Assembly (NCBI GenBank): GCA_019057375.1
Contig: DXJF01000112.1
Coordinates: 1 to 64,000, forward strand
Reading direction: 5' to 3'
DNA from: Candidatus Heimdallarchaeota archaeon
Lineage (GTDB): Archaea; Asgardarchaeota; Heimdallarchaeia; Heimdallarchaeales; Heimdallarchaeaceae
Length of the DNA stretch: 64,000 nucleotides
The position numbers were made by a program, and so were the translations under genes. The stretch's first letter is position 1; the number at the start of each line of letters is the position of its first letter. The notes under the pieces are model-generated. The model searched no databases. It had not been told where the DNA came from and saw only the letters and a list, made by a program, of their open reading frames with translations. Shown one piece after another: positions 8,805 to 43,121 of this stretch.

Positions 8805-10478
8805 TTAGAGTGATTCTTCATATAACTGAACTAATCTGTCTCTAACTACGTCACTTCTATACTCTGGTAAAATGGTTGGAGAATATCTTTTATCTTTTAG
8901 ATTTAGAGCATCAAGAGCCTTAATTGATTTATGAACATGAGCAAGAGAAAGTTTTCCTGTGGTACTCTTTTTCTTGTATTCATTAGCTGCTGTGATACCA
9001 GCCCTTCTTCCGAATACATTTATTTCTAAAAGAGAATTACCCATAAGACGATTCTTACCATGAACTCCTCCGGAAATTTCTCCTGCTGCTAAAAGTCCCT
9101 TAAGAGATGTGTGACAACTCTCATCATGCTCTACACCACCATTCTGATAATGTAAGGTAGGATAAACAAGAATTGGATCTACGGTTATATCGATATCAAA
9201 CCTATTCATCATTCGATGCATAGCACTAAGATTGTTCATAATTGTACCTTTTCCTTTGATTTCCTCAATTAAAGGACTATCTAGCCAGACTCCTCTCATT
9301 TGGGTTGGAGTTTCAATGTAATTGTCAGTTGCTGCACAACATTTGATTATAGATGATGCTTCAACGTCTCTGGGTTCCAATGGATAACAAATTTGTTCCC
9401 CATTTCGTCCAAGAACTTGACCTCCTAAACTTCGAACTTTTTCAGTAATCAGTAGTCCTACAATTTGCTCTGGAAATGCTGCACCTGTTGGATGGAATTG
9501 TGTAGCATCTAAATCTCGTAATTTAGCACCTGCACGATAAGCCATAACTACACCATCCATAGTTGCACCATAGTGATTAGATGTTGGAAAACCTGCTACA
9601 TGAAGTCTTCCAAAACCACCTGTGGTTAAGATGATTGTTTTAGCTCTAACAACAAAGTATTGTTTTGTTTCGATGTTATATAGAACAGCTCCTGCTATTC
9701 CTCCAGTTTCATTTGTAATAAGCTCAACAGCGGGAGAAAATTCTAGATATGGAACTTCCTTATTTATTATCTCATCTTTTAATGTTCTAAACATCTCCAG
9801 TCCAGTGTAATCCTTAGAACAATGCATTCTATTTCTTGATGTACCACCTCCAGGATTCTCAATAAAACTACCATCTTCAGTACAATCATACATTACTCCA
9901 AGGTCCTTGTGCCATTTGATAATTTTCGGAGCATCACTCACTAAAGCTTTGACCAGCTCAGGTTTGTTCTCGAAATGTCCCCCTCCTATTGCATCCATAT
10001 AATGAATTAATGGACTATCTACAGGACGATCAGCTGCTTGAATACCACCTTGCGCCATGACTGTATTGCAATCTCCAAGTCTGAGTTTTGTAACAAGCAG
10101 AATTTCCTCTTTTGGTACTCCAGAGTAGTTGGCCCACAAGGCTGCTGAGGTACCAGCACCGCCTGCACCAATGATTAATACATTGACATCATAATCGATT
10201 TGGTTTAAATCTATATCATCTGGATTTACCATTGGATAAGCTTCAATAACATCTGCAACTTCATTGGGTACATCATCACCTTTATTACCTCCCCAAGAAA
10301 TATTCCTTTTAAATTTTGGATTATAATCTGGGTGAAAATTGTCAAGAACTTCTTTTCGTTCTTTTAGAGATAAATCTTCTATAATTTGGTCGATACGCTT
10401 GTTTCTTGTTTTATTAACATTATCTATGCTTTTTCGCATATCTTCAGGATAACCTCTTATCATCTTCATTTTTATCAC
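8805..10478 (-). CDS. Fumarate reductase/succinate dehydrogenase-family flavoprotein (SdhA/FrdA/TfrA-like), probably non-covalent FAD
   Basis: IGAGGAG; NTVMAQGGIQAA (Asn where SdhA has the FAD-binding His); QFHPTG, LITEKVR, EPRDVE, PTLHYQNGG, NRLMGNSL. Confidence 0.85.
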   Translation of the reverse strand: MIKMKMIRGYPEDMRKSIDNVNKTRNKRIDQIIEDLSLKERKEVLDNFHPDYNPKFKRNISWGGNKGDDVPNEVADVIEAYPMVNPDDIDLNQIDYDVNVLIIGAGGAGTSAALWANYSGVPKEEILLVTKLRLGDCNTVMAQGGIQAADRPVDSPLIHYMDAIGGGHFENKPELVKALVSDAPKIIKWHKDLGVMYDCTEDGSFIENPGGGTSRNRMHCSKDYTGLEMFRTLKDEIINKEVPYLEFSPAVELITNETGGIAGAVLYNIETKQYFVVRAKTIILTTGGFGRLHVAGFPTSNHYGATMDGVVMAYRAGAKLRDLDATQFHPTGAAFPEQIVGLLITEKVRSLGGQVLGRNGEQICYPLEPRDVEASSIIKCCAATDNYIETPTQMRGVWLDSPLIEEIKGKGTIMNNLSAMHRMMNRFDIDITVDPILVYPTLHYQNGGVEHDESCHTSLKGLLAAGEISGGVHGKNRLMGNSLLEINVFGRRAGITAANEYKKKSTTGKLSLAHVHKSIKALDALNLKDKRYSPTILPEYRSDVVRDRLVQLYEESL

Positions 10479-11191
10479 GCCTTTTTCTGATCAACGAAAT
10501 CTCGTTCAGTATATCGTTTCTTTAAACCATCCTTTGAGAGAGAAATCAGTTCTTTAAAACCCTCCTCAAAGACACCGTTTTCAATTTCTTCAACTCTTTC
10601 CAAAAGTGTTTCTGGAGTGCTAGTGTTGTATTTTCCATGTAGTCTTCTAGCAAGCATACCAACATGATATTGTGGAATTTCTGCAGGACATCTAATCGCA
10701 CATAAACCACATTGAACACAATCAAAAGACACCTCTGCAGCTTTATCAATCTGGCCTTGAAGACTATATTGAACAAAGTCCATAACCTGGATTTCCTGAG
10801 GACATACCTTTGAACAAGCGTTACAACTTAAACATCTTGCTACTTCAGGATAAAATTTCAGAATTGAACTCGCTGTAGGTTGAAGTGAATCTACATCGTA
10901 AATTCCCTTTGGTGCGGGTACAAATGGTAATTGAGTTAATACCATCCCGTCTTCAACTTGTGTCTGACATGCTAGTGCAGCGTATAATCTGTAGTCACCT
11001 GCTTTTCGATATACTGTCCCACAAGCTCCACAAAATCCAGCTCTACATCCAGCACCCCTTTTAATTTTAAAACCTGCATACTCCATCGCTTTCATTATTG
11101 TCAGAGATTCGGGTACTTCATGCGCTGAACCCATAATATATATTTTTACTGTAAGGGTTTCATTCTCTTGTTTTGTTTTGGTCTTTGACAT
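10475..11191 (-). CDS. SdhB/FrdB/TfrB-like iron-sulfur subunit ([2Fe-2S] plus two 4-Cys clusters)
   Basis: GCRAGFCGACG...ALAC, CLSCNACSKVCP, CVQCGLCAIRCP. Its stop overlaps the flavoprotein start. Confidence 0.85.
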   Translation of the reverse strand: MSKTKTKQENETLTVKIYIMGSAHEVPESLTIMKAMEYAGFKIKRGAGCRAGFCGACGTVYRKAGDYRLYAALACQTQVEDGMVLTQLPFVPAPKGIYDVDSLQPTASSILKFYPEVARCLSCNACSKVCPQEIQVMDFVQYSLQGQIDKAAEVSFDCVQCGLCAIRCPAEIPQYHVGMLARRLHGKYNTSTPETLLERVEEIENGVFEEGFKELISLSKDGLKKRYTERDFVDQKKA

Positions 11192-11203
11192 TTTTCTAAC
11201 CCT

Positions 11204-12121
11204 CTATTTTGTTTTTTTCCTCCCAATTAATCCCAAATCCTTGAGGAGAGGTTCAGGATTTATGAAATGATCTTTAAAGTGATTGATTTTAACTGGTTCT
11301 CCCATTGCTATAGCCATCAATTGTGTAAAGTAAAACACTGGAATAGGTGATTTTCTTACAGTATTCTTTGCCATAGCTTTTTGCTGTTGGTCTATGTTAT
11401 AAGCACATAATGGACAAGCAACTACTAGTGCATTTGCTCCTCTTCTTTTTGCAGCTTCAACAATTTTCTCAACTTGAGAAGAAACAATATATTCTTGATC
11501 TACTATGTGATAGGAACCACAACAGAATTTGAATAACGGAGACATTACTAATTCTGCTCCTAAGCTTTCAACTAAACTTTCTAAAACATCAGGCATCTCT
11601 TCATCGTCAATCTTAGCTTCTTCAGGATGCAATAACATACAACCATAGTAAGGTGAAATTTTCAGACCTTCAAGCGGATTGACCACTTTTTCAGAGATTT
11701 TTTCATATCCTACTGAATCTCGAAGAATTTCCAAGAAATGTTTTACTTCCATGTCTGTTTCATAGACTTCTTCATCTTCTTCCAATTGATAATTAATCTT
11801 ATCCAAAGTATCTTGATTTTTCCTAACTTCATTATTGACAATTCTTAGAGTACTATTACACATAGAACAAAGAGTAACTACTTGATTTGGAGATTCTTTA
11901 AGTGTTTCAATATGTTTCTTTGATCTTGATAACACTCGAATAGGTGCAATACGTTTCATGATATTGTCTGAGGTCAGAGTATGTACAGTTCCACAGCAAT
12001 TCCAAATTGGCATTTCAACTAGTTCAGCATTTATTTTTTTACTGACAGCTATAGCAGTTTCTTCAAACCCTTTTGCATTTGTTTTTAGATTGCATCCTGG
12101 AAAGTAAGAGTATTGTACCAT
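11204..12121 (-). CDS. hdrB: Heterodisulfide reductase subunit B (two CCG domains)
   Basis: YFPGC, WNCCG, TLCSMC, YYGC, FCCG, VACPLC. Confidence 0.92.
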   Translation of the reverse strand: MVQYSYFPGCNLKTNAKGFEETAIAVSKKINAELVEMPIWNCCGTVHTLTSDNIMKRIAPIRVLSRSKKHIETLKESPNQVVTLCSMCNSTLRIVNNEVRKNQDTLDKINYQLEEDEEVYETDMEVKHFLEILRDSVGYEKISEKVVNPLEGLKISPYYGCMLLHPEEAKIDDEEMPDVLESLVESLGAELVMSPLFKFCCGSYHIVDQEYIVSSQVEKIVEAAKRRGANALVVACPLCAYNIDQQQKAMAKNTVRKSPIPVFYFTQLMAIAMGEPVKINHFKDHFINPEPLLKDLGLIGRKKTK

Positions 12122-12128
12122 TTACGAA

Positions 12129-12539
12129 TCACCCTGTTTTTTTACGAAAATTGCTAACTAAAGCAATATTTGGAAGCTTATCTAAAGCTTCTTTAGAAAT
12201 TTCAGAAATTATGATTTTCTCATAATCCTCTCTCAAGCAATATTCACGTACTGCTTCCATTAATGCAGCAACATCAATATCTCGAGGGCATCTGACAGAG
12301 CAAGTTAAACAACTAGAACAAACCCAATGAGTATTTGATTTCAGAACCTTTTCTTTTTGCCCGATTTGAATAAGGTGAATAAGTTGACTTACTGTTCTAT
12401 CCATTTTATCACTAAAAACACAGCCTGCAGAACACTTACCACATTGATAGCAGCTGTAGATATTTTGTCCTGAAATTTCTTCTATTTTTGCAATGAAGTC
12501 TTTTTCTTCTTTTCCAAATTTTAAATATTCGTATGACAT
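12129..12539 (-). CDS. hdrC: Heterodisulfide reductase subunit C
   Basis: CYQCGKCSAGC and CSSCLTCSVRCP; located between hdrA and hdrB. Confidence 0.92.
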   Translation of the reverse strand: MSYEYLKFGKEEKDFIAKIEEISGQNIYSCYQCGKCSAGCVFSDKMDRTVSQLIHLIQIGQKEKVLKSNTHWVCSSCLTCSVRCPRDIDVAALMEAVREYCLREDYEKIIISEISKEALDKLPNIALVSNFRKKTG

Positions 12540-12553
12540 TTCTCTACACCCCT

Positions 12554-14521
12554 TTATTCTTCTCCCAATGCCCCTATTAAGGCAAGAATTTGACTATCTG
12601 TATATCCTAGCTGATTAATTGCACCATTCAAACAAGCTGCAGCACAACTTCCACATCCTTTACACAATGCTTCATTAACAAAAGCAACTCGTAAAGCGTG
12701 TCCGTATTTATTAATTGCATTAATTTCGATTGCACTATAAGGACAAGCTTCAGCACATAAACCGCAACCTCGACATAGGTCTTCATCTACCTGAGCAACA
12801 GTTCCTTCAATTTCTAATTCATCTTGAGCTAATATTCCTGCAGCTCTAGAAGCTGCTCCACTAGCACTTGAAACTGCATCTGGAATGTCTTTTGGTCCTG
12901 TAGCAGTTCCTGCAACAAAAACACCTGAAATTGCAGTATCTACTGGCTTTAATTTTGGATGTGCTTCTCTGATGAAACCATTCATTCCAACTGATAGGTT
13001 TAGAAGGCTAGCAATTTCTTTAGTTCCTGCACTAGGCATTAAACCTGTGGCTAGAACTACTAAATCAGCATGAAGTTCAACGGTTTCTCCTGTTAGAGTA
13101 TCTGCTCCTTTTACTAGAATTTTATCTCCATCTTGGAAAACTTCAGAAACTTTACCTCTTATATATATCACTTGGTCTTCTTCAGCTGCTCTCTGGTAAA
13201 ATTCTTCATAATCTTTTCCAGCTGTTCTTATGTCAATAAAGAAGTTTATAGCTGTTCCATCATGCACTAAATGTTTGTACTGTAAAGCATGTTTGGTTGC
13301 ATACATACAACAAACTTTCGAACAATAAGGTAGATGTTTGCTTGGGTCACGAGATCCTGCACAATGGACGAAAACAACTGTTTTAGGTATTTTACCATCA
13401 GATGGACGACGAATTGTACCATCAGTTGGACCACTTGCAGAAACTATTCTCTCAAAGTCCAAACCAGAAATCACATCTGGAATTGTTCCATAACCATACT
13501 CACCAATATTTTCTATAGGATAGGGTTCATATCCTGTTGCTACAATTATGGCACCAACTTCTTTTTCAATTATCTCTGGTTTCATATCAAAATCTATTGC
13601 TTCTGGTCCGCAAACATCTTTACATTTTGAACAAATGAGCGGATCTATACCTAAACAAGAATTAGGGTCTATAAGATATGATGCTGGGACTGCTTGAGGA
13701 TATGGTATGTAAATCGCTCTTCTTGGAGAAAATCCTTGATTATATTCATCGTGTTCTATAACTGGACAGACAGGAACACAATCATCACAAAGAGTACATT
13801 TATCTGCTAATACATAACTAGGATTTTTCTTAATCTTTACTTTGAAATTTCCAACATATCCATCAACTTCTACAACCTCACTTAGTGCAAGTAAGTCAAT
13901 ATTTGGGTGACGATTAACATCTACCATTTTAGGACTTAAAATACACTGTGAACAATCTAATGTAGGAAATGTTTTGTCAAGCTGAGACATTTTTCCACCA
14001 ATTGTTGCAGATTTTTCAACAAGTGTGGTATCAAATCCCATATCTGCTAAATCAAGAGAAGCTTGGATACCTGCTATACCACCACCTATCACGAGTGCAT
14101 TGTGTGTTACGCCAACCTTTTTCCTTTCTAAGGGATGCATTAAAGAAGCTCTTAAAACTGCACCTTTAAGCAATGAAGCAGCTTTAGCTGTACCCTTTGA
14201 CTTGTCGTCATGGACCCAAGAAACTTGTTCTCTAATATTGACAATTTCTAGGACATATGGATTCAATCCCATGTCTTCTAACACTGCCCTGAATGTAGGT
14301 TCATGCATTCTTGGCGAACAAGCTGCAACTACAATTCTATCTAGTTGTTTCTCCTCAATATCCTGTTTTATCAATACTTGACCGGGGTCAGAACACACAT
14401 ATTTGTAAACTCTGCTGACTTCTACATATGGAAATTCTTTTGCTTGTTCTACTAAATCCTCAACATCAACAGTACTTGCAATGTTGGATCCACATTCACA
14501 AACATAAACTCCAATTTTCAT
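12554..14521 (-). CDS. hdrA: Heterodisulfide reductase subunit A (bifurcating FAD/FeS subunit)
   Basis: GVYVCECGSNIA, AACSPRMHE, IGGGIAG, TFPTLDCSQCIL, YCSKVCCMYATK, plus inserted and C-terminal ferredoxin motifs. Confidence 0.96.
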   Translation of the reverse strand: MKIGVYVCECGSNIASTVDVEDLVEQAKEFPYVEVSRVYKYVCSDPGQVLIKQDIEEKQLDRIVVAACSPRMHEPTFRAVLEDMGLNPYVLEIVNIREQVSWVHDDKSKGTAKAASLLKGAVLRASLMHPLERKKVGVTHNALVIGGGIAGIQASLDLADMGFDTTLVEKSATIGGKMSQLDKTFPTLDCSQCILSPKMVDVNRHPNIDLLALSEVVEVDGYVGNFKVKIKKNPSYVLADKCTLCDDCVPVCPVIEHDEYNQGFSPRRAIYIPYPQAVPASYLIDPNSCLGIDPLICSKCKDVCGPEAIDFDMKPEIIEKEVGAIIVATGYEPYPIENIGEYGYGTIPDVISGLDFERIVSASGPTDGTIRRPSDGKIPKTVVFVHCAGSRDPSKHLPYCSKVCCMYATKHALQYKHLVHDGTAINFFIDIRTAGKDYEEFYQRAAEEDQVIYIRGKVSEVFQDGDKILVKGADTLTGETVELHADLVVLATGLMPSAGTKEIASLLNLSVGMNGFIREAHPKLKPVDTAISGVFVAGTATGPKDIPDAVSSASGAASRAAGILAQDELEIEGTVAQVDEDLCRGCGLCAEACPYSAIEINAINKYGHALRVAFVNEALCKGCGSCAAACLNGAINQLGYTDSQILALIGALGEE

Positions 14522-14536
14522 AATATTATCACGCCT

Positions 14537-15379
14537 TTACATATCTCCTTGAATATCTTTTATTTGATCATATGAGAATACAGGTCCATCTTTGCAGACA
14601 TAGAGATTCCCTATGTTGCACCTTCCGCATATACCTATACCACATTTCATTCTCATTTCCAAAGTTGTGTAAACTTGGTCTTCTTTAAAGTCAAGTTCCA
14701 AGAGATTTTGAATTACAAATTTAATCATGATTGGTGGGCCGCAAGTGATTGCAATTGTATTTTCTGGAGATGGGTTAAGTCTCTTCAAATTATCTGGAAC
14801 AAACCCTACAAACTGATCCCAACCCTCTTCTTCAACATCTATGGAAAGATGAATGCTTAAATCATCTTTCTTACTCATTTCTGCAAATTCATCCTTATAA
14901 CAGAGGTCACGAGAAGTTCTAGCACCATAAACGATATCTATTTTTCCATAATCTTTTCTGTTATCTTTGCAGTAATTAATCACAGAACGAAGTGGAGCTT
15001 GCCCTATTCCTCCACCTAAAAAGAGGATATTCTTTCCTTTCCATTCATCAACTTTGAAGCTGTTCCCATATGGACCCCTTGCTCCAACTAAATCCCCTTC
15101 TTCTTTTAGATGCAGTGCTTTGGTAAGTTTACCATATCTCATAACACTAACTTCTATGTAATCTTTTTGAGTGGGTGATGAAGAGATAGCGAACATACTT
15201 TCACCAGTTCCAAATACGCTTATCATAATACATTGACCAGGTAGGAAGGTGAACTTCTTTTTAACTTCTTCATCTTGGAATTCAAGTCTGAATGTTTTTA
15301 TTGCTCTTTCTCCACTAGCTTCTTCTTTTATACTGATAATTTTCGCTATCCAAGGCTGGTAGGGGTTTTCGTCTGTCAT
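14537..15379 (-). CDS. flxA: FAD/NAD(H)-binding oxidoreductase with [2Fe-2S] (FlxA; HydG/AsrB-like)
   Basis: FLPGQ, RGPYGN, GGGIGQAP, CGPPIM, MKCGIGICGRCNIG..VCKDGP; position within the hdr cluster. Confidence 0.85.
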   Translation of the reverse strand: MTDENPYQPWIAKIISIKEEASGERAIKTFRLEFQDEEVKKKFTFLPGQCIMISVFGTGESMFAISSSPTQKDYIEVSVMRYGKLTKALHLKEEGDLVGARGPYGNSFKVDEWKGKNILFLGGGIGQAPLRSVINYCKDNRKDYGKIDIVYGARTSRDLCYKDEFAEMSKKDDLSIHLSIDVEEEGWDQFVGFVPDNLKRLNPSPENTIAITCGPPIMIKFVIQNLLELDFKEDQVYTTLEMRMKCGIGICGRCNIGNLYVCKDGPVFSYDQIKDIQGDM

Positions 15380-16413
15380 ACATTGACCTCCTTCACTTTG
15401 TCAATTACTTCGATTATATCAATATTAACAGGACAATAATCAATACATCTACCACAACCAGTACATCCAAAGATTCCATCATTTTTGGGGAAGTAGTTGA
15501 ACTTGTGATAAACTCTATTTCTTACTCTATTCATTCTTGAGGGTCTAGGATTATGACCTGATGCATGATGAGTATATTCTTCATACATACATGAATCCCA
15601 TACACGTACTCTCCCACCTAGTTTCAAAGTACTCTCATCTTGCATATCAAAACAATGACATGTTGGACACAAATAAGTACAAATGCCACAACCAATACAA
15701 CTTCTAGCAGCTTCTATCCAGAATTCGTGCTCAAACATTTTGTTTAGTTTTTCAACGGCTCCCTCTGTGTTCATCTTTCGGGAGATTGCTTTAATTGCTG
15801 TTTTTTCTGTCTCCTTTCTGATAGTACCTTCTTTTTCAGTTGCTTTAGAGAAGATTTTGCTTAGGTTTTTAATTAGATCTTCTCCTTTTTCTGTTACAAT
15901 TTCAACAAAATATGTGCCGCCTATATCTGTAAATAGAATATCTACATGTTTAGAATTCGCTGGACTGTCATCAAATGATGTACAGAAACAGTTGGTATCT
16001 GGTTCATTACAACTTAGACCAATCAGAATGCTTCTATTTCTTTTCTTTGTATAAAATGGATCAGTATAATCGCCTTCTTTCTTACCCATAAAAACTGGAT
16101 CTATGATATCATATCCTCGTGCATCGCATGGGCGAATTCCAAAAATTACTCTTACTGATTCATCAATTTTTGGAGTTTGAATCTTAGAATCTTTTCCTTT
16201 GGCATATGTAAAGAGAGTTTCAGTTTGTTGGAATATCAAGGACTTAGGAGGCACTCTTGAAAGTAAAATATCTAGATTGACCTCTTTTGGATCATTTATT
16301 TTCCTGAAGGCTAAGAATCCATTTTCTTCCTTTGGTCCAATCAGTTCAAATTTAGAACCAATCTCTCCAAGCAATTCAGGTAATTTTTCTTTTGGTAATG
16401 TTAGTTGTTCCAT
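15376..16413 (-). CDS. flxB: 4Fe-4S dicluster protein (FlxB; HydB/AsrA-like)
   Basis: FGIRPCDA, CFCTSF, CIGCGICTYLCPTCHCF, GCTGCGRCIDYCP. Confidence 0.85.
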   Translation of the reverse strand: MEQLTLPKEKLPELLGEIGSKFELIGPKEENGFLAFRKINDPKEVNLDILLSRVPPKSLIFQQTETLFTYAKGKDSKIQTPKIDESVRVIFGIRPCDARGYDIIDPVFMGKKEGDYTDPFYTKKRNRSILIGLSCNEPDTNCFCTSFDDSPANSKHVDILFTDIGGTYFVEIVTEKGEDLIKNLSKIFSKATEKEGTIRKETEKTAIKAISRKMNTEGAVEKLNKMFEHEFWIEAARSCIGCGICTYLCPTCHCFDMQDESTLKLGGRVRVWDSCMYEEYTHHASGHNPRPSRMNRVRNRVYHKFNYFPKNDGIFGCTGCGRCIDYCPVNIDIIEVIDKVKEVNV

Positions 16414-16422
16414 TTTAACTCC

Positions 16423-17409
16423 TCACGAAATGAAATCCTCCGGATCATCTGGTCGAAAACTTCCCAAGAATGGTTTTTCTTCAGTATCGAGTCCAGCAGT
16501 ATAATCAAACATCTCTTTAACTTCTTTCTCAACAAACTTGTTCAATTCCATTAGAGGAATGTTAACAGGACAAGATCGTTCGCATTCCCCACAACTAATA
16601 CACCTACCAGCAAGATGAAATGCACGCATTACGTTCCAAGCAGTATTTTCTGATAGATTTACAGATCGTCTGATCCATTGTGGTTCTAATAGATCAGCCA
16701 TACATGTTTTACAATAGCAAAGTGGGCATGCCTCTCTACATGCATAACAGCGGATGCAGTTCTGAAAATGCTTCTCCCAATATTCCCATCTTTTTTCTAT
16801 TGTTTTTTCTTCTAATTCATCTACTCTGTTAAAGTGTTCGGGTTGAAATTCTTCTTCAGCTTCACCTATAAGTATGTCATATAAAGGTGGATTTGGGTAT
16901 TCGCAGCTTTTACATACATCTGAAAGCAATTCGTCTTTGGGTATTTTATGGCTTGTTCCACCTATTTCTAATATATATTCGTCGTTGTTATTTTCCTCAA
17001 CATCAACAAACTTTGATTGTTTAGGAAATCTTTTTGCTATCTTTTTTGGGTCGATTACACCTTTGCAAGGGATGCCTATTAAAACAACATCTTCCTTTTC
17101 TAATCCCTTTTCTTGAATGATTTGGATTATGGCACGGGAGTCACAACCCTTTACAACAATTCCAATCTTCTTATGTTCTGCTTCCTCTCCTCTTCTTAAT
17201 GGTAATTTTTCTTCAAGAAGTGGATAAGTAGCTAGATTCTTTGAACATAATGGAGAGTAAAAGAACTCCTTTGCGTCTTCAGCGCTATATGCAAAGGCAG
17301 GTTTTATCTGAAAACCATAAGTGCCTCTCTTATAACCAATAACGTATTTCACGTCATCTCGAGAAACGGTTTCCTCAACTACCTTGATTAGTTCTTTATT
17401 CTCTACCAT
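16423..17409 (-). CDS. flxC: 4Fe-4S protein (FlxC; FdhB/FrhB-like)
   Basis: KGCDSRAI, CIRCYACREACPLCYC, HLAGRCISCGECERSCP. Confidence 0.8.
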   Translation of the reverse strand: MVENKELIKVVEETVSRDDVKYVIGYKRGTYGFQIKPAFAYSAEDAKEFFYSPLCSKNLATYPLLEEKLPLRRGEEAEHKKIGIVVKGCDSRAIIQIIQEKGLEKEDVVLIGIPCKGVIDPKKIAKRFPKQSKFVDVEENNNDEYILEIGGTSHKIPKDELLSDVCKSCEYPNPPLYDILIGEAEEEFQPEHFNRVDELEEKTIEKRWEYWEKHFQNCIRCYACREACPLCYCKTCMADLLEPQWIRRSVNLSENTAWNVMRAFHLAGRCISCGECERSCPVNIPLMELNKFVEKEVKEMFDYTAGLDTEEKPFLGSFRPDDPEDFIS

Positions 17410-17876
17410 TCTTTTTCCCTCCTAATTTTGGTCATAGGACCTAATTTTTTGATGTCCTCAGTAACTTCTCTGACGACGTCAGCATATTTTCTACCTTCAG
17501 CAGCTGAAACCCAAGTCATTCTTACTCTCTCAGGTTCAATACCAAGAAACTCCAATAGCTTTTTCATGGTAGCAACCCTTCTCCTCGCTAAGTAATTTCC
17601 ATGAGTGTAGTGACAATCACCAGGATGACATCCACTGACTAGAACTCCATCAGCACCCTGCTGAAATGCATTAATTATATACATCGGATTTACTCTTCCA
17701 GAACACATTACCTTGATGATTTTAACATTAGGAGGATATTGGATTCTGCTTGTTCCTGCGAGATCTGCTCCTGCATAGGAACACCAACTACATAAGAAAC
17801 CAATTATGTTTGGTTCGAATTCTTCCAGTTCTGTATTCTTTTTTGTAGACATTTCCAAACCTTCGTCTATTCTCAA
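17403..17876 (-). CDS. mvhD: MvhD/FlxD [2Fe-2S] subunit (true start probably ATG at 17852)
   Basis: GFLCSWCSYAGADLAG, VMCSGRV, GCHPGDCHY, WVSAAEG. Confidence 0.93.
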   Translation of the reverse strand: MRIDEGLEMSTKKNTELEEFEPNIIGFLCSWCSYAGADLAGTSRIQYPPNVKIIKVMCSGRVNPMYIINAFQQGADGVLVSGCHPGDCHYTHGNYLARRRVATMKKLLEFLGIEPERVRMTWVSAAEGRKYADVVREVTEDIKKLGPMTKIRREKEW

Positions 17877-18421
17877 GAGTCTGATTTATACTCCATACCT
17901 TTTTGGAAAGCAATTAGATTCTTTTCAACAAATCTTGCTTTGATTTTTTCTTTCATTATTGTAAGCATAGCTTCTTCAGAGAAGATGTCTGTTGTGTTAG
18001 CACATACATAACCCAACATAGCTATGTTAGCATAAAGTCTGCTTCCAAGAGTTTCAGCAATTTTAGTTGCTGGAATTTTGAATATCTTTTTAGCTTTCTT
18101 TGCATTTTCATCTAGTGTAACTAAATCCTCTTCAACAAAGAGTATTCCACCTTCTTTGAGTTTTGGAATATACTTCTGATAAGCTTCTTCTGATAAAACG
18201 ACAAAGTAATCCAGTTCAGTTGCTTTAGGATAATCGATTTCTCCTTCATCAATTACGACATCAGTGCTACTTGCTCCACCCCTACTTTCTGGACCATAAC
18301 TTTGTGTCATTACAGAATTCTTTCCTTCTTCTAATAAGCTTACAGCTTCACCTACAAGCCTCCCCATAAGTCCTATCCCTTGACCACCAAAACCTGCAAA
18401 ACGAATTTCTACTCTACTCAT
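17873..18421 (-). CDS. korC: 2-oxoacid:ferredoxin oxidoreductase gamma subunit (KorC-type)
   Basis: EIRFAGFGGQG, QSYGPESRGGASS, NIAMLG. Confidence 0.9.
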   Translation of the reverse strand: MSRVEIRFAGFGGQGIGLMGRLVGEAVSLLEEGKNSVMTQSYGPESRGGASSTDVVIDEGEIDYPKATELDYFVVLSEEAYQKYIPKLKEGGILFVEEDLVTLDENAKKAKKIFKIPATKIAETLGSRLYANIAMLGYVCANTTDIFSEEAMLTIMKEKIKARFVEKNLIAFQKGMEYKSDS

Positions 18422-18425
18422 TTTA

Positions 18426-19286
18426 TCATCCCTTCTTAGCTTGACTAACTCTCTGAAGTGCTAGTAAATTATCTGTTAAAGTTGGTTTGTCTTCAATGTC
18501 AACAAATTTACCAACTATAATTGGACTGTTCTTATCAATTTGAACGTCTCTGGTGTCCGCATCGTGGTTCAAAACAGTTTTTTCAGCGAAAAATTCAAGA
18601 ATCTTTTTTCCTTCAGCTAGTTGGTTTCGACGACCGTAAGTTGTAGGACAGCTACCTAAAACTTCGACGAAAGAGAATCCATTTTTAGCTATGGCTTCAG
18701 AAAAAGCCTCTTTTACTCTTCTAACATCTAAAGCAGTATATCGTGCAACGTAGACTGCGCCACAACTTGCAGCAAGATTAGGAATGTTGAATGGCTCTTC
18801 TAGTGAGCCATAAGGAGCGGTAGTCTGAAATTGACCCACGTAAGTTGTGGGACCTGCTTGTCCTCCTGTCATACCATAATTGAAGTTATTAACACAAACT
18901 ACAGTAATATTCGCATTTCTTCTTGCTGCATGGATAAAATGATTTCCACCTATTGCAAAAAGATCCCCATCTCCAGAAATTACTATCACTTTGCGTTCTG
19001 GATCTGTTACACTCAAACCTATTGCAAAAGGAATTGATCTTCCATGAGTTGTATGGAAACTATCGAAATTGAGATATCCTGCAATTCTACCAGTGCATCC
19101 TATTCCTGAGACCACTGCAACTTTTTTAGGGTCGATTCCAGATTCATTTATTGCTTCAATGAGAACATTTGTTATTGAACCCAAACTGCATCCTGGGCAG
19201 AATATGTGTGGTATTCGTCCTTCTCTTAAAAATCCATCTAGAGGATGAGCCTCTGATTCCAGTAATTGATTTTGATCTTCTGTCAT
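18426..19286 (-). CDS. korB: 2-oxoacid:ferredoxin oxidoreductase beta subunit (KorB-type)
   Basis: FCPGC, SGIGC, HTTHGR, TPP motif GDGDLFAIGGNH...NN, YGMTGGQ. Confidence 0.92.
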   Translation of the reverse strand: MTEDQNQLLESEAHPLDGFLREGRIPHIFCPGCSLGSITNVLIEAINESGIDPKKVAVVSGIGCTGRIAGYLNFDSFHTTHGRSIPFAIGLSVTDPERKVIVISGDGDLFAIGGNHFIHAARRNANITVVCVNNFNYGMTGGQAGPTTYVGQFQTTAPYGSLEEPFNIPNLAASCGAVYVARYTALDVRRVKEAFSEAIAKNGFSFVEVLGSCPTTYGRRNQLAEGKKILEFFAEKTVLNHDADTRDVQIDKNSPIIVGKFVDIEDKPTLTDNLLALQRVSQAKKG

Positions 19287-20491
19287 TATGCATCACCCTC
19301 AATTTCTTTTAGTATTTCTTGTGGATTATGAATTGCTCCTCCAAGCTTGAATATACCTTTTACTTCAGTTTTACCATGAACACTTCTTTCTACTTCTCTT
19401 GTAATTTGTCCATAGTTGATTTCTGGAACATAAATTTTCTTTACTTGTTCTGCTAAAGCTTCTATCCTCTCATTAGGGAAAGGCCATATGGTGATTAACC
19501 GCAATAAACCTACTTTGATTCCCTTCTTTCTGGCCCTATTCACAGCCCCTTTAGCTGTTCTTGCTACTGAACCAAATGAGATAATTGCAAATTCAGCATC
19601 ATCTAACATGTATTCCTCTACCTTGATGATATCTTTCTTATTTAGTCTAATTTTATCATTAATTCTTCTAACCAGTTTATCTTGTGTCTTTGTATTTAAG
19701 TCAGGATATCCTCTTTCATCATGAGTTAATCCAGTTACCATAACTCTGTAACCTTCTCCAGCAACAGCCATAGGGGGAATAAGATCATCATCTGGCTTAT
19801 ATGGTAAGTGTTCCTCTGGAGAATCTTTCGGTTTTTTCCTTTCTACTTTTCCAATTTTACTAGCATCAGGAATTATTAGTCTTTCACTCATGTGCCCCAG
19901 AGTTTCATCCAACAAAAGTGTAACTGGTAATCTATATTTCTCTGCATAATTGAATGCTTCAATAGCTAGCTCAAAACATTCCTGAACTGAGTTTGGACAT
20001 AAAACTATTGGTTCAAAATCTCCATGGGCCCCCCATTTGGTTTGCATAATATCTTGTTGTCCAACCAATGTAGGTAATCCAGTAGACGGTCCTCCTCTTT
20101 GAACGTTGATTATTACGCAAGGAGTTTCAGTCATCATTCCAAGACCTATGTTCTCAACCATCAAAGAATATCCTGGACCCGAAGTTGCTGTCATACTCTT
20201 GACACCACCCCAAGATGCTCCCAAAATGCCAATAATTGAGGCAATTTCGTCTTCAAACTGAACAAAATTCCCACCTAGTTGTGGCAAACGTAAAGCCATA
20301 TGTTCGGCTATTTCAGAACTAGGTGTAATTGGATATCCACCAAAGAACTTACATCCAACTGCGAGAGCTCCTTCAGCAGCAGCATGGTTACCTGTAGTAA
20401 AGTGCTCTCCAGTACTTACTTCTAAAAATTTTTGTTTTTGCTTACTCATCTTCAGCATCACTCTCTTCGAGTACTTTAACATAAATTGCAA
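19286..20491 (-). CDS. korA: 2-oxoacid:ferredoxin oxidoreductase alpha subunit (KorA-type; start probably the downstream MSKQK)
   Basis: GNHAAAEGA, YPITPSSEI, QFEDE, ATSGPG, QRGGPSTGLPT. Confidence 0.92.
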   Translation of the reverse strand: MQFMLKYSKRVMLKMSKQKQKFLEVSTGEHFTTGNHAAAEGALAVGCKFFGGYPITPSSEIAEHMALRLPQLGGNFVQFEDEIASIIGILGASWGGVKSMTATSGPGYSLMVENIGLGMMTETPCVIINVQRGGPSTGLPTLVGQQDIMQTKWGAHGDFEPIVLCPNSVQECFELAIEAFNYAEKYRLPVTLLLDETLGHMSERLIIPDASKIGKVERKKPKDSPEEHLPYKPDDDLIPPMAVAGEGYRVMVTGLTHDERGYPDLNTKTQDKLVRRINDKIRLNKKDIIKVEEYMLDDAEFAIISFGSVARTAKGAVNRARKKGIKVGLLRLITIWPFPNERIEALAEQVKKIYVPEINYGQITREVERSVHGKTEVKGIFKLGGAIHNPQEILKEIEGDA

Positions 20492-20774
20492 ATTCAGGAC
20501 AAATTAACTCACAGAAATGGCACTCAGCACAATCGTCGAAAGTCTTTCCTTCTTTTAAAACAGGGGGACGATATCCTTTAGCATTAATTTCCTCTCCAGT
20601 TTCTAAAATCTCCTCTGGACAGTAAATAATACACCACTCACATTCCTTGCATCTATCCTTTATTATATAAACTTGAGAGTCAGGACCTTTTAACTTTTCC
20701 AAGTCTACAAAAGCTGGCCATTCTGGCTTCTTTCGTCTTCTTTCTAGTGATTGACCCATTAAAATGAACCACAA
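20442..20774 (-). CDS. korD: 2-oxoacid:ferredoxin oxidoreductase delta subunit (2x[4Fe-4S] ferredoxin, KorD)
   Basis: CKECEWCIIYCP and CAECHFCELICPEFAI; first gene of the operon. Confidence 0.88.
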   Translation of the reverse strand: MWFILMGQSLERRRKKPEWPAFVDLEKLKGPDSQVYIIKDRCKECEWCIIYCPEEILETGEEINAKGYRPPVLKEGKTFDDCAECHFCELICPEFAIYVKVLEESDAEDE

Positions 20775-20847
20775 TTTATAGCGCTGTCGGGTGTGATTTA
20801 TTTAGTTATTTAAAGTTTTATTTATGTATTGAATTGAAATAATAAAT

Positions 20848-20902
20848 GAATACTAATAGTATTCCTTTAGGATTTAAGTAATTGTTTTCAATCCTTAGGA
20901 TT
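20848..20902. promoter_or_regulatory. Palindromic putative operator sites in the divergent promoter of the kor-flx-hdr operon
   Basis: GAATACTA-A-TAGTATTC (20848-20864, perfect 8-1-8) and AATCCT-T-AGGATT (20890-20902, 6-1-6). Confidence 0.4.
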
Positions 20903-20968
20903 TTTTAATAATGTGATTCATGTATCTCTTCCTATTCCCCTCTGAGGAAAAATTGAAATAGTTTAACG

Positions 20969-21631
20969 ATGATAAAATTAATGTCTAAAATGTTAACAAG
21001 AGATTTGAGTGTAACTGTTCTCGGGAACACAGGAGCAGGAAAAACTACCCTTGTGCACCGATTAAAGGGAGAAGAAGTTGAAGACATCAGTCCTACAACA
21101 AGTATAGAGGTTCATCAAAAGACAATTCGATTAAAGAGTCAATCATTCAAACCTGCCTTAAGTTTAGAGAAGTATAGAAGTTATCGAGTGAGAGCAATCG
21201 ACTGTCCTGGTGATATGAGTTTATGGCCATATTGGAAAAAAGCATTAGCTGATTATAACACAAATGGAATTATATTTCTCATAGATCCTACACAAGATTC
21301 AAAGGTACAAATAGATGCACTAACTCAGGTTTCCAATTATTATCTTATGACTTTAGATGATGATGTAGTTAGAGCAGAAAGAAAAGCAAGAAAAGTTAAG
21401 GCTATTTTCTTCCTCGTTGTTAATAAGATAGATCTTATTGGAAATAGCAAAGGTAAAGCTGATGAATTAATCAAAGAGAAATATCAAACAGCTTGGAATC
21501 ATCTTAAAGAACGTTACCCAAGTAGTGGGCATTATTGGGAAGCAATCTCAGCAATTGATGAAACTGAGCAAATGATTGACACTATCGATGGAATCTTTGA
21601 AACTATCAAGCGCGAAATCTATGGAGAGTAA
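20969..21631 (+). CDS. Ras-superfamily small GTPase (Arf/Sar-related, atypical)
   Basis: G1 GNTGAGKTT, G2 SPTT, G3 DCPG, G4 NKID, G5 SAI. Confidence 0.9.
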   Translation: MIKLMSKMLTRDLSVTVLGNTGAGKTTLVHRLKGEEVEDISPTTSIEVHQKTIRLKSQSFKPALSLEKYRSYRVRAIDCPGDMSLWPYWKKALADYNTNGIIFLIDPTQDSKVQIDALTQVSNYYLMTLDDDVVRAERKARKVKAIFFLVVNKIDLIGNSKGKADELIKEKYQTAWNHLKERYPSSGHYWEAISAIDETEQMIDTIDGIFETIKREIYGE

Positions 21632-21709: not shown

Positions 21710-22444
21710 ATGAGTGATTCAGAATCAGTAAAAGAATCAAAAAAATTTGTTCATAATTGTACTAAATGTGGATCTTGTTGTGAAAAGTGGTCTGAAATAC
21801 CAATATATATTGAAGATTTACAGAAATGGATTGCTGATGGAACAATTCATCCTGTTTTACCGTTTCTACAGATACAAGAAACTCCTCCAGCATATGTGCG
21901 ATTAATTATGAAAAAACCTGCTACAAATGAAGAAGATCCAAACCCATCCGGATGCCCATTATATGATTATAAAAATAAAATTTGCAATATTTATTCTTCG
22001 ATGCCGTTATATTGTGCGTCTTATCCTTTAGCATATAATGGTGAAAAATTCTATCTAGTTGATAGAGATTCTCCAGGACTTGGTAATGGAATTATGACAG
22101 CTGAAACATTAGAATCGGCAAGAGAAAGAGCAAGAAATCAATTTGAAGCTGTATCTAGTTCTATTGCAATCCTCCCCTTGCTTTATACAATGATTATCTC
22201 AAGTATTATGCAAAAAAGTCAAGAAGCGATGGCTTCCTTATCTGATGAGGATCAGCAGCAACTGGAAGAACTTTTATCAAAATCTAAAGATGATCAAGAA
22301 ACAGAAGACGAAACTGATTCCAAGGAAGATAATCAAGAAACAGAAGACGAAACTGATTCCCAAGATGAATGGGAAGATATTGATGATGAAGAAAATACTG
22401 AGAAAGAAAATACAGAGAAAGAAAATACAGAGAAAGAGGAATAA
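21710..22444 (+). CDS. YkgJ-family cysteine-cluster (Zn/Fe-chelating) protein with acidic tail
   Basis: CTKCGSCC...GCPLY...CNIY..MPLYCASYP, followed by a D/E-rich C-terminus. Confidence 0.8.
   Translation: MSDSESVKESKKFVHNCTKCGSCCEKWSEIPIYIEDLQKWIADGTIHPVLPFLQIQETPPAYVRLIMKKPATNEEDPNPSGCPLYDYKNKICNIYSSMPLYCASYPLAYNGEKFYLVDRDSPGLGNGIMTAETLESARERARNQFEAVSSSIAILPLLYTMIISSIMQKSQEAMASLSDEDQQQLEELLSKSKDDQETEDETDSKEDNQETEDETDSQDEWEDIDDEENTEKENTEKENTEKEE
22293..22435 (+). repeat. In-frame tandem repeats encoding the acidic tail
   Basis: 29-bp exact repeat at 22293-22321 and 22332-22360 (39-bp period); 15-bp unit GAAAATAC(T/A)GAGAAA three times at 22391-22435. Confidence 0.9.
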
Positions 22445-41900: not shown

Positions 41901-43121
41901 AATAATTACAGAATTATTAATTGGGTTTTCTACTATTATTTGTGGATGTCTGCTGATTAATATGATTTCGAAATCATTTGAAATAGATGTTGTGAAAGTT
42001 AAATCTTTTCTATAAACTCCATACAAAATAATGCATGAATAACTACCATCACTTACTGATATGTTTGATTCTCCATTACTGTCGGTGGTACTTACATAGT
42101 TTTGATCTTCTGTTCTGAATCCATTCTGTCTGTAGAGAGTAATCTTCGCGCCTTGAATCGGATCATTTTCATCCGTTATTAATCTAAAATATACGTTTCT
42201 CTCAATATATGAAATATATATCTCTGCTTGTAAATCTTTATCCAATAGAATCCTTATCGACTCTGAAATAACATCTGTAACTTCACACTGTATTTCGTAT
42301 TCTCCAAAAGGTAATATAAACGAAGCTTGATTGTCATTAAAAATGATGGTTTGATTGATTAATACACCTCTTTTATTATAGACACAAACCGATGCATTAA
42401 GTTCTTGCAGATACCCAGGAGTTATGATATTCACAACAAGTTCATATTCACTACTCACTAATTCCCGTAGCATTTCTTTGTTTTCAATGACATCTAGATC
42501 TATCTCTACTCTCAAGTGAGTTATGTAATTAAAATCCTCAAATGCAAAAAACTGACCAATCCATAAGGAAGCTATTATCTCGTCATCTAATAGGGTATCA
42601 GATCTAAAAATTGATTTAATTTTTAATTCAATTGCAGATTCTGATCTGGTAGAAAATAGTGTAAAATAGTCTCCTAATCCTAGATTATTTCTTTCCGCAA
42701 AATTAATTCCCACACTAACCTCAAACGTATCATTTACTGTTAGAAGTTTACCTTCCAAATGCTCTATGCTGGTGAAATGCCAAAAGGAAGAAACATCTAC
42801 ACCCCTGAAGTAAACAGCTTTATTCTTAAATACTGCAGCTGTCATAACTTCCGGACTAACTTCTTTTACTCCCTCAATTGAACTAATAGTATCTGCTAAA
42901 TCTAATGGTATCACACTTGTGTAAGGAGTCGAAGCCTTTGGATTCGAGATTACCAAAATATTTTCACTCTCTCCTAGATATGATGCAGTACTATTTACAA
43001 TGCTGGACATAAGGATTCCAGCACCTGAAATTATAGTGGAGCTAATAAGAAATCCAATGAAAGCTAAGAGTATTCTCTTTTTTGGTAGGACATTGTAAAG
43101 AAAGATTTTTCTAAGATTCAT
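38928..43121 (-). CDS. FtsX/MacB-like ABC permease with very large extracytoplasmic Ig-like region (1397 aa)
   Basis: N-terminal TM plus MacB-type core (VSVGINFAERNNLGLGD); about 1000 aa beta-rich insert; C-terminal ESKRESTIIKMIGG followed by 3 TM helices. Confidence 0.8.
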   Translation of the reverse strand: MNLRKIFLYNVLPKKRILLAFIGFLISSTIISGAGILMSSIVNSTASYLGESENILVISNPKASTPYTSVIPLDLADTISSIEGVKEVSPEVMTAAVFKNKAVYFRGVDVSSFWHFTSIEHLEGKLLTVNDTFEVSVGINFAERNNLGLGDYFTLFSTRSESAIELKIKSIFRSDTLLDDEIIASLWIGQFFAFEDFNYITHLRVEIDLDVIENKEMLRELVSSEYELVVNIITPGYLQELNASVCVYNKRGVLINQTIIFNDNQASFILPFGEYEIQCEVTDVISESIRILLDKDLQAEIYISYIERNVYFRLITDENDPIQGAKITLYRQNGFRTEDQNYVSTTDSNGESNISVSDGSYSCIILYGVYRKDLTFTTSISNDFEIILISRHPQIIVENPINNSVIIGYNVDIRLSSSPGYSIYFYWDDNLTTMEEFYLASPSEEAPESISTPFEEGSHSLTIETFNQDYISSGYDKSLNYAETKVYFDVIEAFPEEYYFINAMNGSHLNPSSVLILNSTHKFSGNFLYKWNSNPWLEVFSDIISVPYVNGIHSLTLKAELENASKEWNFVFAVTDNPEGIGIIGLKEHMKVSAESEIQTWFNPQYEAYYQWDSYADSLISQNSVIKPDGLTEGNHTLYLAFYDTYIWSNRSYTFRIDNSAPDISLSQINGSEINYESLLTVSTNETLSSLEFSWDGLSYSTAYDTKILVPQSNGNHTLRLRTSDLAGNSMELYYEFVIVNFTGSTPIDFYMLNEYSGTLNQVHIDLNVISETEAYRVEYQISGTVFKAGNITNTTRIFLYPGNYNLKIIYWGSFLDKRERTWTFNILDGQKTSTITNDNFSETYSGDIFINLLYLDVNYTINSLNTLFVSDGYYSLLYQLVDISTDTFNYNFIVDTNDPYVTVLSPHKGEEGLNADLILESDAVLILFKIDNNPIYEYDSIYIPPFLVGGEHTIIFYLTDSFNNTKTETYTFYMGQEYAPVNLTIEIKIGDDIHPIFNLTVAINDFYNSPTSFFTSDINGSVFFNIFEGEFQVKFNYADKYYDFQLDTRTGINQNILIGYGYTTVEVRDYFANSSINNQYCIIRDLFGRRIMSQITNNQGQFLTSSLPSGDYICYFTRTDDATIAVPFEVYGSNNIILFEIPSMKKRVDFEFRYDNGSKIFNLPVIVETEIQGQILTTTSLHSKFKIYISYGYVNLTIFPEDGSTVYLRRIFEPGKELITIVLPSDSDDQLSKIPFKPVAGFSFLIAFSTEYLNYYLRGSLLFTYTLVYAEIALILVVVIVNMYSILQNMYRESKRESTIIKMIGGTNLHTIVSIFSRLGLIALISSIIGYGIGVLILKILSSLNQTIFFGHTFLPKGSWNIFLLNVAFTLLVAILTIILIARKAGKERKVSSVRR

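Follow-up and report, generated by a model that had tools for sequence, protein, structure and literature searches.

What an HdrABC module reduces outside the methanogens is the question raised by an operon in a 64,000-nucleotide stretch of DNA (contig DXJF01000112.1 of assembly GCA_019057375.1, hereafter the window) from a Heimdallarchaeaceae metagenome-assembled genome. The operon joins genes for a 2-oxoacid:ferredoxin oxidoreductase (Kor), an Flx-Hdr module and a pair of SdhA- and SdhB-like proteins. The answer towards which the sequence evidence leads us is fumarate: the operon probably encodes a fumarate reductase that is soluble, needs no quinone, probably needs no thiol either and is attached to the HdrA bifurcating module. 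It belongs to a widespread kind of operon, proposed before and biochemically unproven, of which it is an Asgard (Heimdallarchaeaceae) example.

Architecture of the operon

Thirteen open reading frames of the window, all on the minus strand, run from position 20774 down to 8805 in the order korD-korA-korB-korC-mvhD/flxD-flxC-flxB-flxA-hdrA-hdrC-hdrB-sdhB-like-sdhA-like. Neighbouring frames overlap by 1–50 nt or are separated by gaps of 4–15 nt. Pfam and NCBIfam profile searches of the 13 proteins gave the domain calls listed here together with the operon borders and the one distant gene pair that enters the argument.

20442–20774, minus strand: korD, 2x[4Fe-4S] ferredoxin-like delta subunit; Fer4 family matches
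19286–20491, minus strand: korA, alpha subunit; POR_N and PFOR_II
18426–19286, minus strand: korB, thiamine pyrophosphate (TPP)-binding beta subunit; TPP_enzyme_C
17873–18421, minus strand: korC, gamma subunit; POR domain, 122 bits
17403–17876, minus strand: mvhD/flxD, [2Fe-2S] adaptor, input module to HdrA; FlpD, 198 bits
16423–17409, minus strand: flxC-like, Fe-S protein; FrhB_FdhB_C, 25.4 bits (cut-off 23.3), and Fer4 dicluster
15376–16413, minus strand: flxB-like, Fe-S protein of the AsrA/sulfhydrogenase-beta type; Fer4_22, 119 bits
14537–15379, minus strand: flxA-like, NAD(P)H:FAD oxidoreductase with [2Fe-2S]; FAD_binding_6, NAD_binding_1 and DHODB_Fe-S_bind
12554–14521, minus strand: hdrA, full-length bifurcating-type flavoprotein; NF040770 HdrA2, 828 bits, model positions 1–642
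12129–12539, minus strand: hdrC, 2x[4Fe-4S], without membrane domain; Fer4_8/17
11204–12121, minus strand: hdrB, two CCG domains (non-cubane cluster motifs)
10475–11191, minus strand: sdhB-like, Fe-S subunit with [2Fe-2S] and two CxxCxxCxxxCP motifs, without CCG domains
8805–10478, minus strand: sdhA-like (P0001), flavoprotein; FAD_binding_2 only
20775–20968, no strand: divergent intergenic region, AT-rich, about 195 nt, with TATA-like boxes upstream of korD (sequence read directly)
8744–8804, minus strand: T-runs TTTTTT and TTTTTTT just past the sdhA-like stop, archaeal terminator-like (sequence read directly)
51985–54016, minus strand: sucD-sucC, succinyl-CoA synthetase; CoA_binding and Ligase_CoA, ATP-grasp_2 and Ligase_CoA

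The region ahead of korD is the only sizeable non-coding gap at the operon head. No membrane helix was predicted in any of the 13 proteins (no 19-residue Kyte-Doolittle window above 1.5), and neither DsrC nor a catalytic subunit of a hydrogenase or of a formate dehydrogenase is encoded in the operon. An earlier note made from the bare sequence had described 13 co-oriented genes with gaps of at most 15 nt, and the exact coordinates held. Its domain assignments for all 13 genes, its sucCD pair at 51985–54016 and its statement that catalytic hydrogenase or formate dehydrogenase subunits, DsrC and a membrane anchor are lacking were likewise borne out. The same is true of the Asgard origin that it had suspected, close homologues being named Heimdallarchaeaceae or Ca. 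Heimdallarchaeum.

The SdhAB-like pair resembles a soluble fumarate reductase

The sdhA-like product P0001 contains 557 residues, arranged as a 95-residue N-terminal extension followed by the FAD and capping domains. About 75 residues follow its NRLMGNS motif; the C-terminal helical domain is missing and no match to Succ_DH_flav_C (PF02910) was obtained. In an alignment to E. coli SdhA and FrdA (1nek, 2b76), P0001 retains the fumarate-site residues, namely His-Pro-Thr, the hinge Thr-Glu, the capping Arg (EPRDVE), the HYQNGG His and the NRLMGNS Arg. These five elements of the dicarboxylate site are invariant in 59 homologues (alignment A4). Asn138 occupies the position of SdhA His45, the covalent-FAD His, and is an Asn in all 59 family members. 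Much of the N-terminal extension is also invariant across the 59 sequences. The AlphaFold2 model of P0001 (pLDDT 82.9, pTM 0.85) is confident, including the extension; its Foldseek fold matches are SdhA, FrdA, flavocytochrome c3 (Fcc3) and NadB only, and they gave no hint of what the extension does.

The SdhB-like partner, of 238 residues, carries an SdhB-type [2Fe-2S] motif and two complete CxxCxxCxxxCP motifs, the cluster Cys of which are all invariant in 49 homologues (alignment A2). It has no CCG domain; the CCG domains reside in the separate HdrB. Comparison with thiol:fumarate reductase (Tfr) gave scores far below the model cut-offs, 303 versus 718 bits for P0001 on TfrA (NF004900, model positions 6–423 of 546) and 40 versus 385 bits for the SdhB-like protein on TfrB (NF004898). 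Since the CCG domains of TfrB and the C-terminal domain of TfrA are also absent, the pair is unlikely to be a Tfr. It plausibly works like a soluble fumarate reductase that is neither a Tfr nor a member of complex II. The earlier note's soluble fumarate-reductase-like pair is therefore upheld by the fumarate-site residues and the lack of membrane helices; the Tfr that it had cited differs from the pair, as the scores and the missing domains show.

The flavoprotein might use another substrate, such as L-aspartate (like NadB) or a different enoate or dicarboxylate, in which case the link to the tricarboxylic acid (TCA) cycle would be indirect. P0001 scores 251 bits on NadB models, nearly the same as on Sdh/Frd models, its active-site residues are common to NadB, and the N-terminal extension is specific to the family. 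Against this stands the obligate SdhB-like Fe-S partner, found in 77 of the 80 loci surveyed below and absent in NadB, together with recurrent adjacency to fumarase and succinyl-CoA synthetase genes. Moreover, an operon of like layout in Pseudoclostridium thermosuccinogenes, likened here by layout description and not by orthology, belongs to a succinate route and is transcribed (PMC7282089). We regard a substrate other than fumarate as very unlikely.

Complete Kor and Flx-Hdr modules

All four Kor subunits are present with the expected POR_N/PFOR_II, TPP_C, POR and Fer4 domains. KorA scored 569 bits on NF006412, above the cut-off of 411; its true start is probably the ATG at 20449, which retains the overlap with korD. 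Models specific for 2-oxoglutarate are the best or second-best Kor matches, all under their cut-offs. KorA reached 419 of 579 bits on NF007206, KorB 234 of 364 bits on its best NCBIfam model, the 2-oxoglutarate ferredoxin oxidoreductase beta subunit, and KorD 45 and 43 bits on the OorD and OGOR-delta models. In other loci, sucCD and fumarase genes nearby support a predicted specificity for 2-oxoglutarate. The window's own sucD-sucC, for the step that connects the reductase with Kor, lies 31 kb from the operon and outside it.

The Flx set is complete as well, comprising FlxA with NAD(P)- and FAD-binding domains and a [2Fe-2S] cluster, the Fe-S proteins FlxB and FlxC, and FlxD, which equals MvhD. 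The FlxA-like protein is presumed to be the electron entry point. The FlxB-like protein scored 213 bits on the ShyB model, under the cut-off, and the MvhD/FlxD protein also aligns with the C-terminal MvhD part of the HdrA2 model. The HdrABC set consists of a full-length HdrA, an HdrC with two [4Fe-4S] motifs (63 bits on CoB_CoM_SS_C and 70 bits on the N-terminal part of QmoC) and an HdrB with two CCG motifs. Among 45 homologues (alignment A3), the ten Cys of these CCG motifs are invariant but for one, which is nearly so. HdrB also scored 125 bits on the SdhE model.

In four HdrB reference sequences selenocysteine was considered and rejected; the apparent internal stops are true stops (TAA or TGA, at about residue 293–301).

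The three modules are linked across phyla

A survey of species-representative genomes, at 52–62% identity and spanning bacteria and archaea, placed the P0001-type family in at least 598 species genomes of both domains. Its distribution among Asgard archaea is uneven, with 61 of 301 genomes and 19 of 70 genera containing it. The best 80 loci were annotated by tblastn with the window proteins and with MvhA/G, fumarase and SucCD. Many of these loci are short contigs, so that the neighbour counts are lower bounds. The flavoprotein gene is accompanied by SdhB-like in 77 loci, HdrB/C in 61, HdrA in 49, MvhD in 40 and Kor in 36; MvhA/G genes occur in 21, class I fumarase in 16, sucCD in 14 and FlxA/B in 13. 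Some loci, for example L036, L081 and L082, hold the entire fumarase-SucCD-Kor stretch.

The order from korA to sdhA recurs in three other Heimdall species genomes (L013–L015) with 56–91% protein identity; these loci start inside korA, which leaves korD outside their coverage. Because this order recurs in three genomes and the linkage recurs across phyla, gene-order comparison argues that the 13-gene arrangement is not a product of chance. The conservation survey that the earlier note had proposed as a check thus found linkage across bacteria and archaea, and the Heimdall order in the three relatives.

Fusions were also encountered. HdrB and the SdhB-like protein form one 526-aa frame in a Myxococcales metagenome-assembled genome (L064:78-1658), and the SdhB-like and SdhA-like proteins are fused in L081:9284-11668 (794 aa) and L092:1821-4130 (769 aa); all three are read from frames only, and an assembly error is possible in each.

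The modules could be neighbours for regulatory or historical reasons alone, with Kor, Flx-Hdr and the SdhAB-like pair acting independently. Gene order does vary a great deal from lineage to lineage, and in some loci the SdhAB-like pair stands by itself. The linkage nevertheless survives many rearrangements in bacteria and archaea, the 13 genes of the window are translationally coupled, and gene fusions exist, which together make independence barely credible.

Interchangeable electron-input modules

In loci lacking Flx, mvhD and hdrC lie 2.5 kb apart, and the stretch between them holds the genes for both subunits, small and large, of a [NiFe] hydrogenase (Pfam, L020 and L057), to which L057 adds a maturation protease. 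Because Flx-less loci encode a hydrogenase at this place, gene content indicates that the core of Kor, HdrABC and the SdhAB-like pair takes either an NAD(P)H module (Flx) or an H2 module (MvhAG), the two being interchangeable. In a quick IQ-TREE maximum-likelihood tree of 77 flavoproteins, bacterial and archaeal branches are mixed. The Flx clade of the window has an Mvh-type locus as its sister (100% SH-aLRT), and well-supported branches force at least seven Flx and at least nine Mvh label changes.

Seven loci (L019, L053, L063, L066, L069, L075 and L089) have only an FlxC-like gene with the FrhB/FdhB domain between mvhD and the SdhAB-like pair. They are without FlxA/B and MvhAG, and split or multiple HdrA genes are common among them. 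Judged by gene content, they may represent a third type of electron input.

HdrB is likely to pass electrons directly to the SdhB-like subunit

A tblastn scan of the 3.47-Mb, 89%-complete assembly found HdrB, HdrC, the SdhB-like protein and the P0001-type flavoprotein to be single-copy and confined to this operon. Profile searches of this genome and four congeners (88–92% complete) found neither DsrC (PF04358) nor ComA (PF02679) in any of the five; CoB (coenzyme B) synthesis was not searched for. The earlier note had suggested looking for coenzyme M (CoM) and CoB synthesis, DsrC and hydrogenases. ComA and DsrC were found in none of the five genomes searched, and hydrogenases are encoded elsewhere in this genome.

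Contact between HdrB and the SdhB-like protein was addressed by co-folding. The median score of the pair was 0.58 and that of the best control 0.00; at least 91% of contacts agreed between runs and the partner pLDDT was at least 79. In the calibration, 58 of 80 solved complexes and 2 of 110 mismatched pairs reach that mark, and only 7 of the 80 solved complexes, plus both passing mismatches, lie at or below 0.60. Because the co-fold was run on alignments made for this analysis, the calibration counts hold only roughly. The earlier note had called for structure models of the Hdr proteins with the SdhAB-like pair; from the one contact modelled, HdrB with the SdhB-like protein, came weak support.

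A different wiring would involve two enzymes and a thiol carrier, diffusible or protein-bound, with Flx-HdrABC reducing a heterodisulfide and the SdhAB-like pair acting as a thiol:fumarate reductase. Methanogens offer the precedent (Mvh-Hdr, TfrAB and Kor), the same wording was used for gammaproteobacterial clusters (PMC6315080), TfrA is the top-scoring NCBIfam model for the flavoprotein, and a gcvH gene beside an hdrD-like gene makes protein-bound disulfides conceivable. However, the SdhB-like subunit is without the CCG domains that form the thiol site of TfrB, and the Tfr models stay far under their cut-offs. The sole genomic HdrB is encoded by the gene adjoining sdhB, and ComA and DsrC were found in none of the five genomes. 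HdrB is fused to SdhB in L064, and the co-fold is weakly supportive with controls at zero. We therefore hold a thiol shuttle to be quite unlikely. Direct wiring from HdrB to the SdhB-like protein is preferred because that protein lacks CCG domains, only one HdrB exists, no CoM or DsrC route was found, the L064 fusion occurs and the co-fold lends weak support.

A proposed bifurcating NAD(P)H/fumarate/ferredoxin reaction

Given direct wiring, NAD(P)H would be oxidised at FlxA and its electrons would travel through FlxB/FlxC and MvhD (FlxD) to the HdrA flavin, where each pair would be split. The downhill electron would pass from HdrC to HdrB, to the SdhB-like protein and to the non-covalent FAD of the SdhA-like protein, and from there to fumarate. 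The uphill electron from the HdrA flavin would reduce ferredoxin (Fd). The net reaction would be approximately 2 NAD(P)H + fumarate + Fd(ox) -> 2 NAD(P)+ + succinate + Fd(red). With each succinate a single Fd(red) would be formed, exactly what Kor demands for carboxylating the succinyl-CoA that SucCD makes from it, and the stretch of the reductive TCA branch from fumarate to 2-oxoglutarate would be self-sufficient in low-potential electrons. This match would explain why Kor, Hdr and the SdhAB-like pair are linked.

With reported E0' values of +33 mV for fumarate, -10 mV for crotonyl-CoA and -320 mV for NADH (PMC5861303), and a ferredoxin potential of about -450 mV, the net bifurcation reaction is estimated at about -43 kJ/mol, comparable to the Bcd-Etf reaction. 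As an acceptor, fumarate falls into one class with the crotonyl-CoA used by Bcd-Etf.

The same complex could run in reverse during glutamate catabolism. Kor would oxidise 2-oxoglutarate, and the electrons of Fd(red) and succinate would be confurcated at HdrA to 2 NAD(P)+, which would allow anaerobic succinate oxidation without a membrane. The stoichiometry fits equally well, each 2-oxoglutarate yielding one Fd(red) and each succinate consuming one. Many carriers of the genes ferment protein or amino acids (Cloacimonadota, Aminicenantes, Thermoplasmata, Theionarchaea), a study of Culexarchaeia depicts its 'TfrA' oxidatively (PMC9723716), and the reaction is estimated to be near equilibrium at high succinate/fumarate ratios. 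On the other side, every member of the family has Asn in place of the covalent-FAD His. Non-covalent FAD, as known from work on FrdA and SdhA, supports fumarate reduction and only poorly succinate oxidation. The genome also has a separate canonical, His-containing SdhAB beside FumC, and confurcation to NAD+ is endergonic by roughly 40 kJ/mol at standard potentials. We consider the reverse direction unlikely. Fumarate reduction is favoured as the physiological direction because the family lacks the covalent-FAD His, the genome encodes a canonical SdhAB as well and the standard potentials speak for it.

A number of points weigh against this reading of the operon. No biochemical demonstration for any member was found in the literature searched, up to late 2026, including PMC13689815, PMC11176372 and PMC5861303. 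The backing that the co-fold model gives to the HdrB/SdhB-like contact is weak. The donor may be NADH or NADPH, or else F420 acting through the FrhB-like domain of FlxC. The profile models do not establish that Kor is specific for 2-oxoglutarate, the specific models all being below cut-off. Since the reaction is near equilibrium at physiological ratios, gene content cannot fix its direction. Of the 80 loci, 44 are without Kor and 31 without HdrA; many of these incomplete loci are truncated contigs. The long loci L034, L038, L040, L078 and L090 show the SdhAB-like pair alone, and for this reason the partners of the flavoprotein can presumably be different ones in some organisms, or be encoded at another place.

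Transcript evidence belongs with these points. Contigs from the metatranscriptome of one sample (X18/X19) and from a probable DNA run (X20) cover the operon patchily at 88–98% identity, and the metatranscriptome pieces bridge korD/korA, korA/korB and mvhD/flxC. They come from a relative, contigs cannot prove that one transcript spans the genes, and DNA carry-over is possible, which makes them at most a hint of a related operon in an RNA library.

The earlier note had pictured a cytoplasmic complex that bifurcates NADH electrons to fumarate and ferredoxin. Comparative genomics partly supports this picture, through the conserved residues, the linkage, the interchangeable donors, the single-copy HdrBC and the failure to find DsrC or ComA. 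Gene structure, domain content, residue conservation and linkage across phyla are direct observations; NADH as the donor, the direction, the coupling and the physical complex are inferred.

Relation to known systems and earlier proposals

In the reductive TCA (rTCA) clusters of tubeworm symbionts and Thioflavicoccus mobilis, Rubin-Blum et al. (2019) reported korABCD and tfrAB scattered among the flxABCD-hdrABC genes, and suggested a complex in which NADH electrons are bifurcated between the 2-oxoglutarate enzyme and a soluble fumarate reductase (PMC6315080). These clusters share with the window the three modules, their co-localisation and common direction, and the hypothesis. They differ in belonging to Gammaproteobacteria, in lying inside larger rTCA clusters with Rnf and Pnt, and in the assumption of a thiol:fumarate reductase, whereas the window is from an Asgard archaeon. 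The window pair is likened to the published clusters by their description and not by sequence orthology.

The 'succinate operon' of P. thermosuccinogenes contains a fumarase gene, seven genes for Flx-Hdr and, behind these, two for a novel fumarate reductase (PMC7282089). Coupling of ferredoxin reduction to fumarate reduction was assumed there, and the operon is transcribed and about 4-fold up under CO2 limitation (PMC7282089). It differs from the window operon in serving fermentative succinate formation, with no kor reported and no enzyme assay. A bacterial proposal is also credited, as cited in PMC7282089, to a preprint by Koendjbiharie and van Kranenburg (2019; 10.20944/preprints201912.0288.v1). 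The novelty that the earlier note had left conditional thus falls away for the arrangement and the hypothesis, both already published for bacteria (PMC6315080, PMC7282089); previous characterisation amounts to proposals. The papers on Asgard archaea that were consulted mention Hdr, Flx or 'thiol:fumarate reductase' separately, and this operon is not described in them.

Hydrogenotrophic methanogens with MvhADG-HdrABC, TfrAB and KorABCD resemble the window in that bifurcation at HdrA yields Fd(red), fumarate reduction is soluble and Kor uses the Fd(red); many relatives of the window operon carry MvhAG in place of Flx. Methanogens differ by shuttling through CoM-S-S-CoB and by a TfrB to which the CCG domains are fused, whereas in the window the CCG domains are in HdrB, the TfrA C-terminal domain is absent and no ComA was found. 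FlxABCD-HdrABC of Desulfovibrio vulgaris (Ramos et al. 2015, as cited in PMC6315080 and PMC7282089) has the same FlxA–D and HdrA–C subunits and domain content; there DsrC is the proposed acceptor and an alcohol dehydrogenase is linked, and in the window a fumarate reductase pair follows HdrB. FrdABEF of Syntrophobacter fumaroxidans, or type E Sdh, likewise has no transmembrane subunit and possesses an HdrB-like extra subunit, SdhE (PMC5947623). Its operon, unlike that of the window, has no HdrA, MvhD or Flx, and menaquinone or other carriers are the presumed electron donors (PMC5947623). Bcd-EtfAB parallels the proposed reaction, with NADH reducing ferredoxin and, simultaneously, a C=C acceptor whose potential is near 0 mV; its proteins are unrelated, and the bifurcating flavin sits in Etf and not in HdrA.

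If the reading is correct, fumarate would have to be added to the few high-potential partners of flavin-based electron bifurcation, among them the heterodisulfide and crotonyl-CoA, and the question of what HdrABC reduces in many non-methanogens without CoM, CoB or DsrC would be answered. It would also explain how an anaerobe can convert fumarate to 2-oxoglutarate with NADH or H2 as the electron source, needing neither a membrane nor ferredoxin from outside. Metabolic models would be affected, both those of anaerobes in sediments and digesters and those of the Asgard lineages used for reasoning about the host in eukaryogenesis. The idea is in print already; what the window contributes is an archaeal example with the constraints of single-copy HdrBC, a parallel canonical SdhAB and an ACL-like (ATP-citrate-lyase-like) cluster.

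The remainder of the genome

On contig C64 (5545-9408, L095), canonical SdhA (571 aa), SdhB (Fer2_3) and a class II fumarase (FumC) are encoded in a row. This SdhA carries the FAD-linking His in 'VRSHSGAAQGG' as well as Succ_DH_flav_C. A class I fumarase, an Ldh_2-type dehydrogenase (a malate dehydrogenase candidate) and malic enzyme are present in the genome; an Ldh_1_C-type malate dehydrogenase and an archaeal phosphoenolpyruvate carboxylase (PEPcase_2) were found in none of the five genomes.

The cluster on contig C102 (19000-27700; L093:5316-13696) encodes an isocitrate dehydrogenase-family dehydrogenase, large and small aconitase-family subunits and a fused aconitase-family protein. It further encodes an ATP-grasp protein resembling the succinyl-CoA synthetase (SCS) beta subunit and a 713-aa fusion of SCS-alpha with citryl-CoA lyase. 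All of its NCBIfam scores are below cut-off. By domain architecture the cluster is ACL-like, and homocitrate- or leucine-type chemistry is possible for its first genes. Each step of the reductive TCA cycle has a candidate gene in the genome, none of them proven; the ACL-like cluster, the Ldh_2-type enzyme, the fumarases and SucCD also speak for the reductive direction.

A broader proposition, which we put forward as possible rather than probable, is that outside methanogens HdrABC is not a heterodisulfide reductase at all: the non-cubane HdrB clusters would feed the SdhB-like protein directly, the enzyme would bifurcate without thiols and with fumarate as its terminal, high-potential acceptor, and Flx, Mvh or FrhB-like proteins would serve as plug-in donors. 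Together with the ACL-like cluster on C102, Heimdallarchaeaceae might then have an rTCA cycle that makes its own reduced ferredoxin, perhaps handed straight to Kor by KorD.

One other CCG protein is encoded in the genome, the HdrD-like protein on contig C37 (5189-8225; L096:3189-6225, minus strand; Fer4 and two CCG domains, 397 aa). Its gene is followed by one for an FAD_binding_4 protein (GlcD/D-lactate dehydrogenase-like) and by gcvH, and the GcvH lipoyl carrier is a possible protein-bound disulfide partner.

Another Hdr-type cluster, on contig C158 (1-15000; L097), starts with an FlxB-like gene (minus strand), then MvhG-MvhA-MvhD-FlxC-FlxB-FlxA-HdrA (648 aa). It continues with a 1120-aa HdrA with inserted Fer4_20 and Pyr_redox_2 domains (GltD/NfnB-like), a HycI protease and a second MvhD. 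No HdrBC is encoded in this cluster, which may represent an H2/NAD(P)H/ferredoxin enzyme without a disulfide or fumarate arm.

Other genes of the window

Divergent from the operon, positions 20969-21631 (plus strand) encode an Arf/SRPRB-like small GTPase of 220 aa, which is typical of Asgard archaea. The GTPase gene is followed at 21710-22444 (plus strand) by one for a CxxCxxCC protein, putatively Zn/Fe-chelating. The window also contains two very long open reading frames, one of 1397 aa at 38928-43121 (minus strand) and one of more than 1500 aa at 59500-63999 (plus strand) that runs off the window end.

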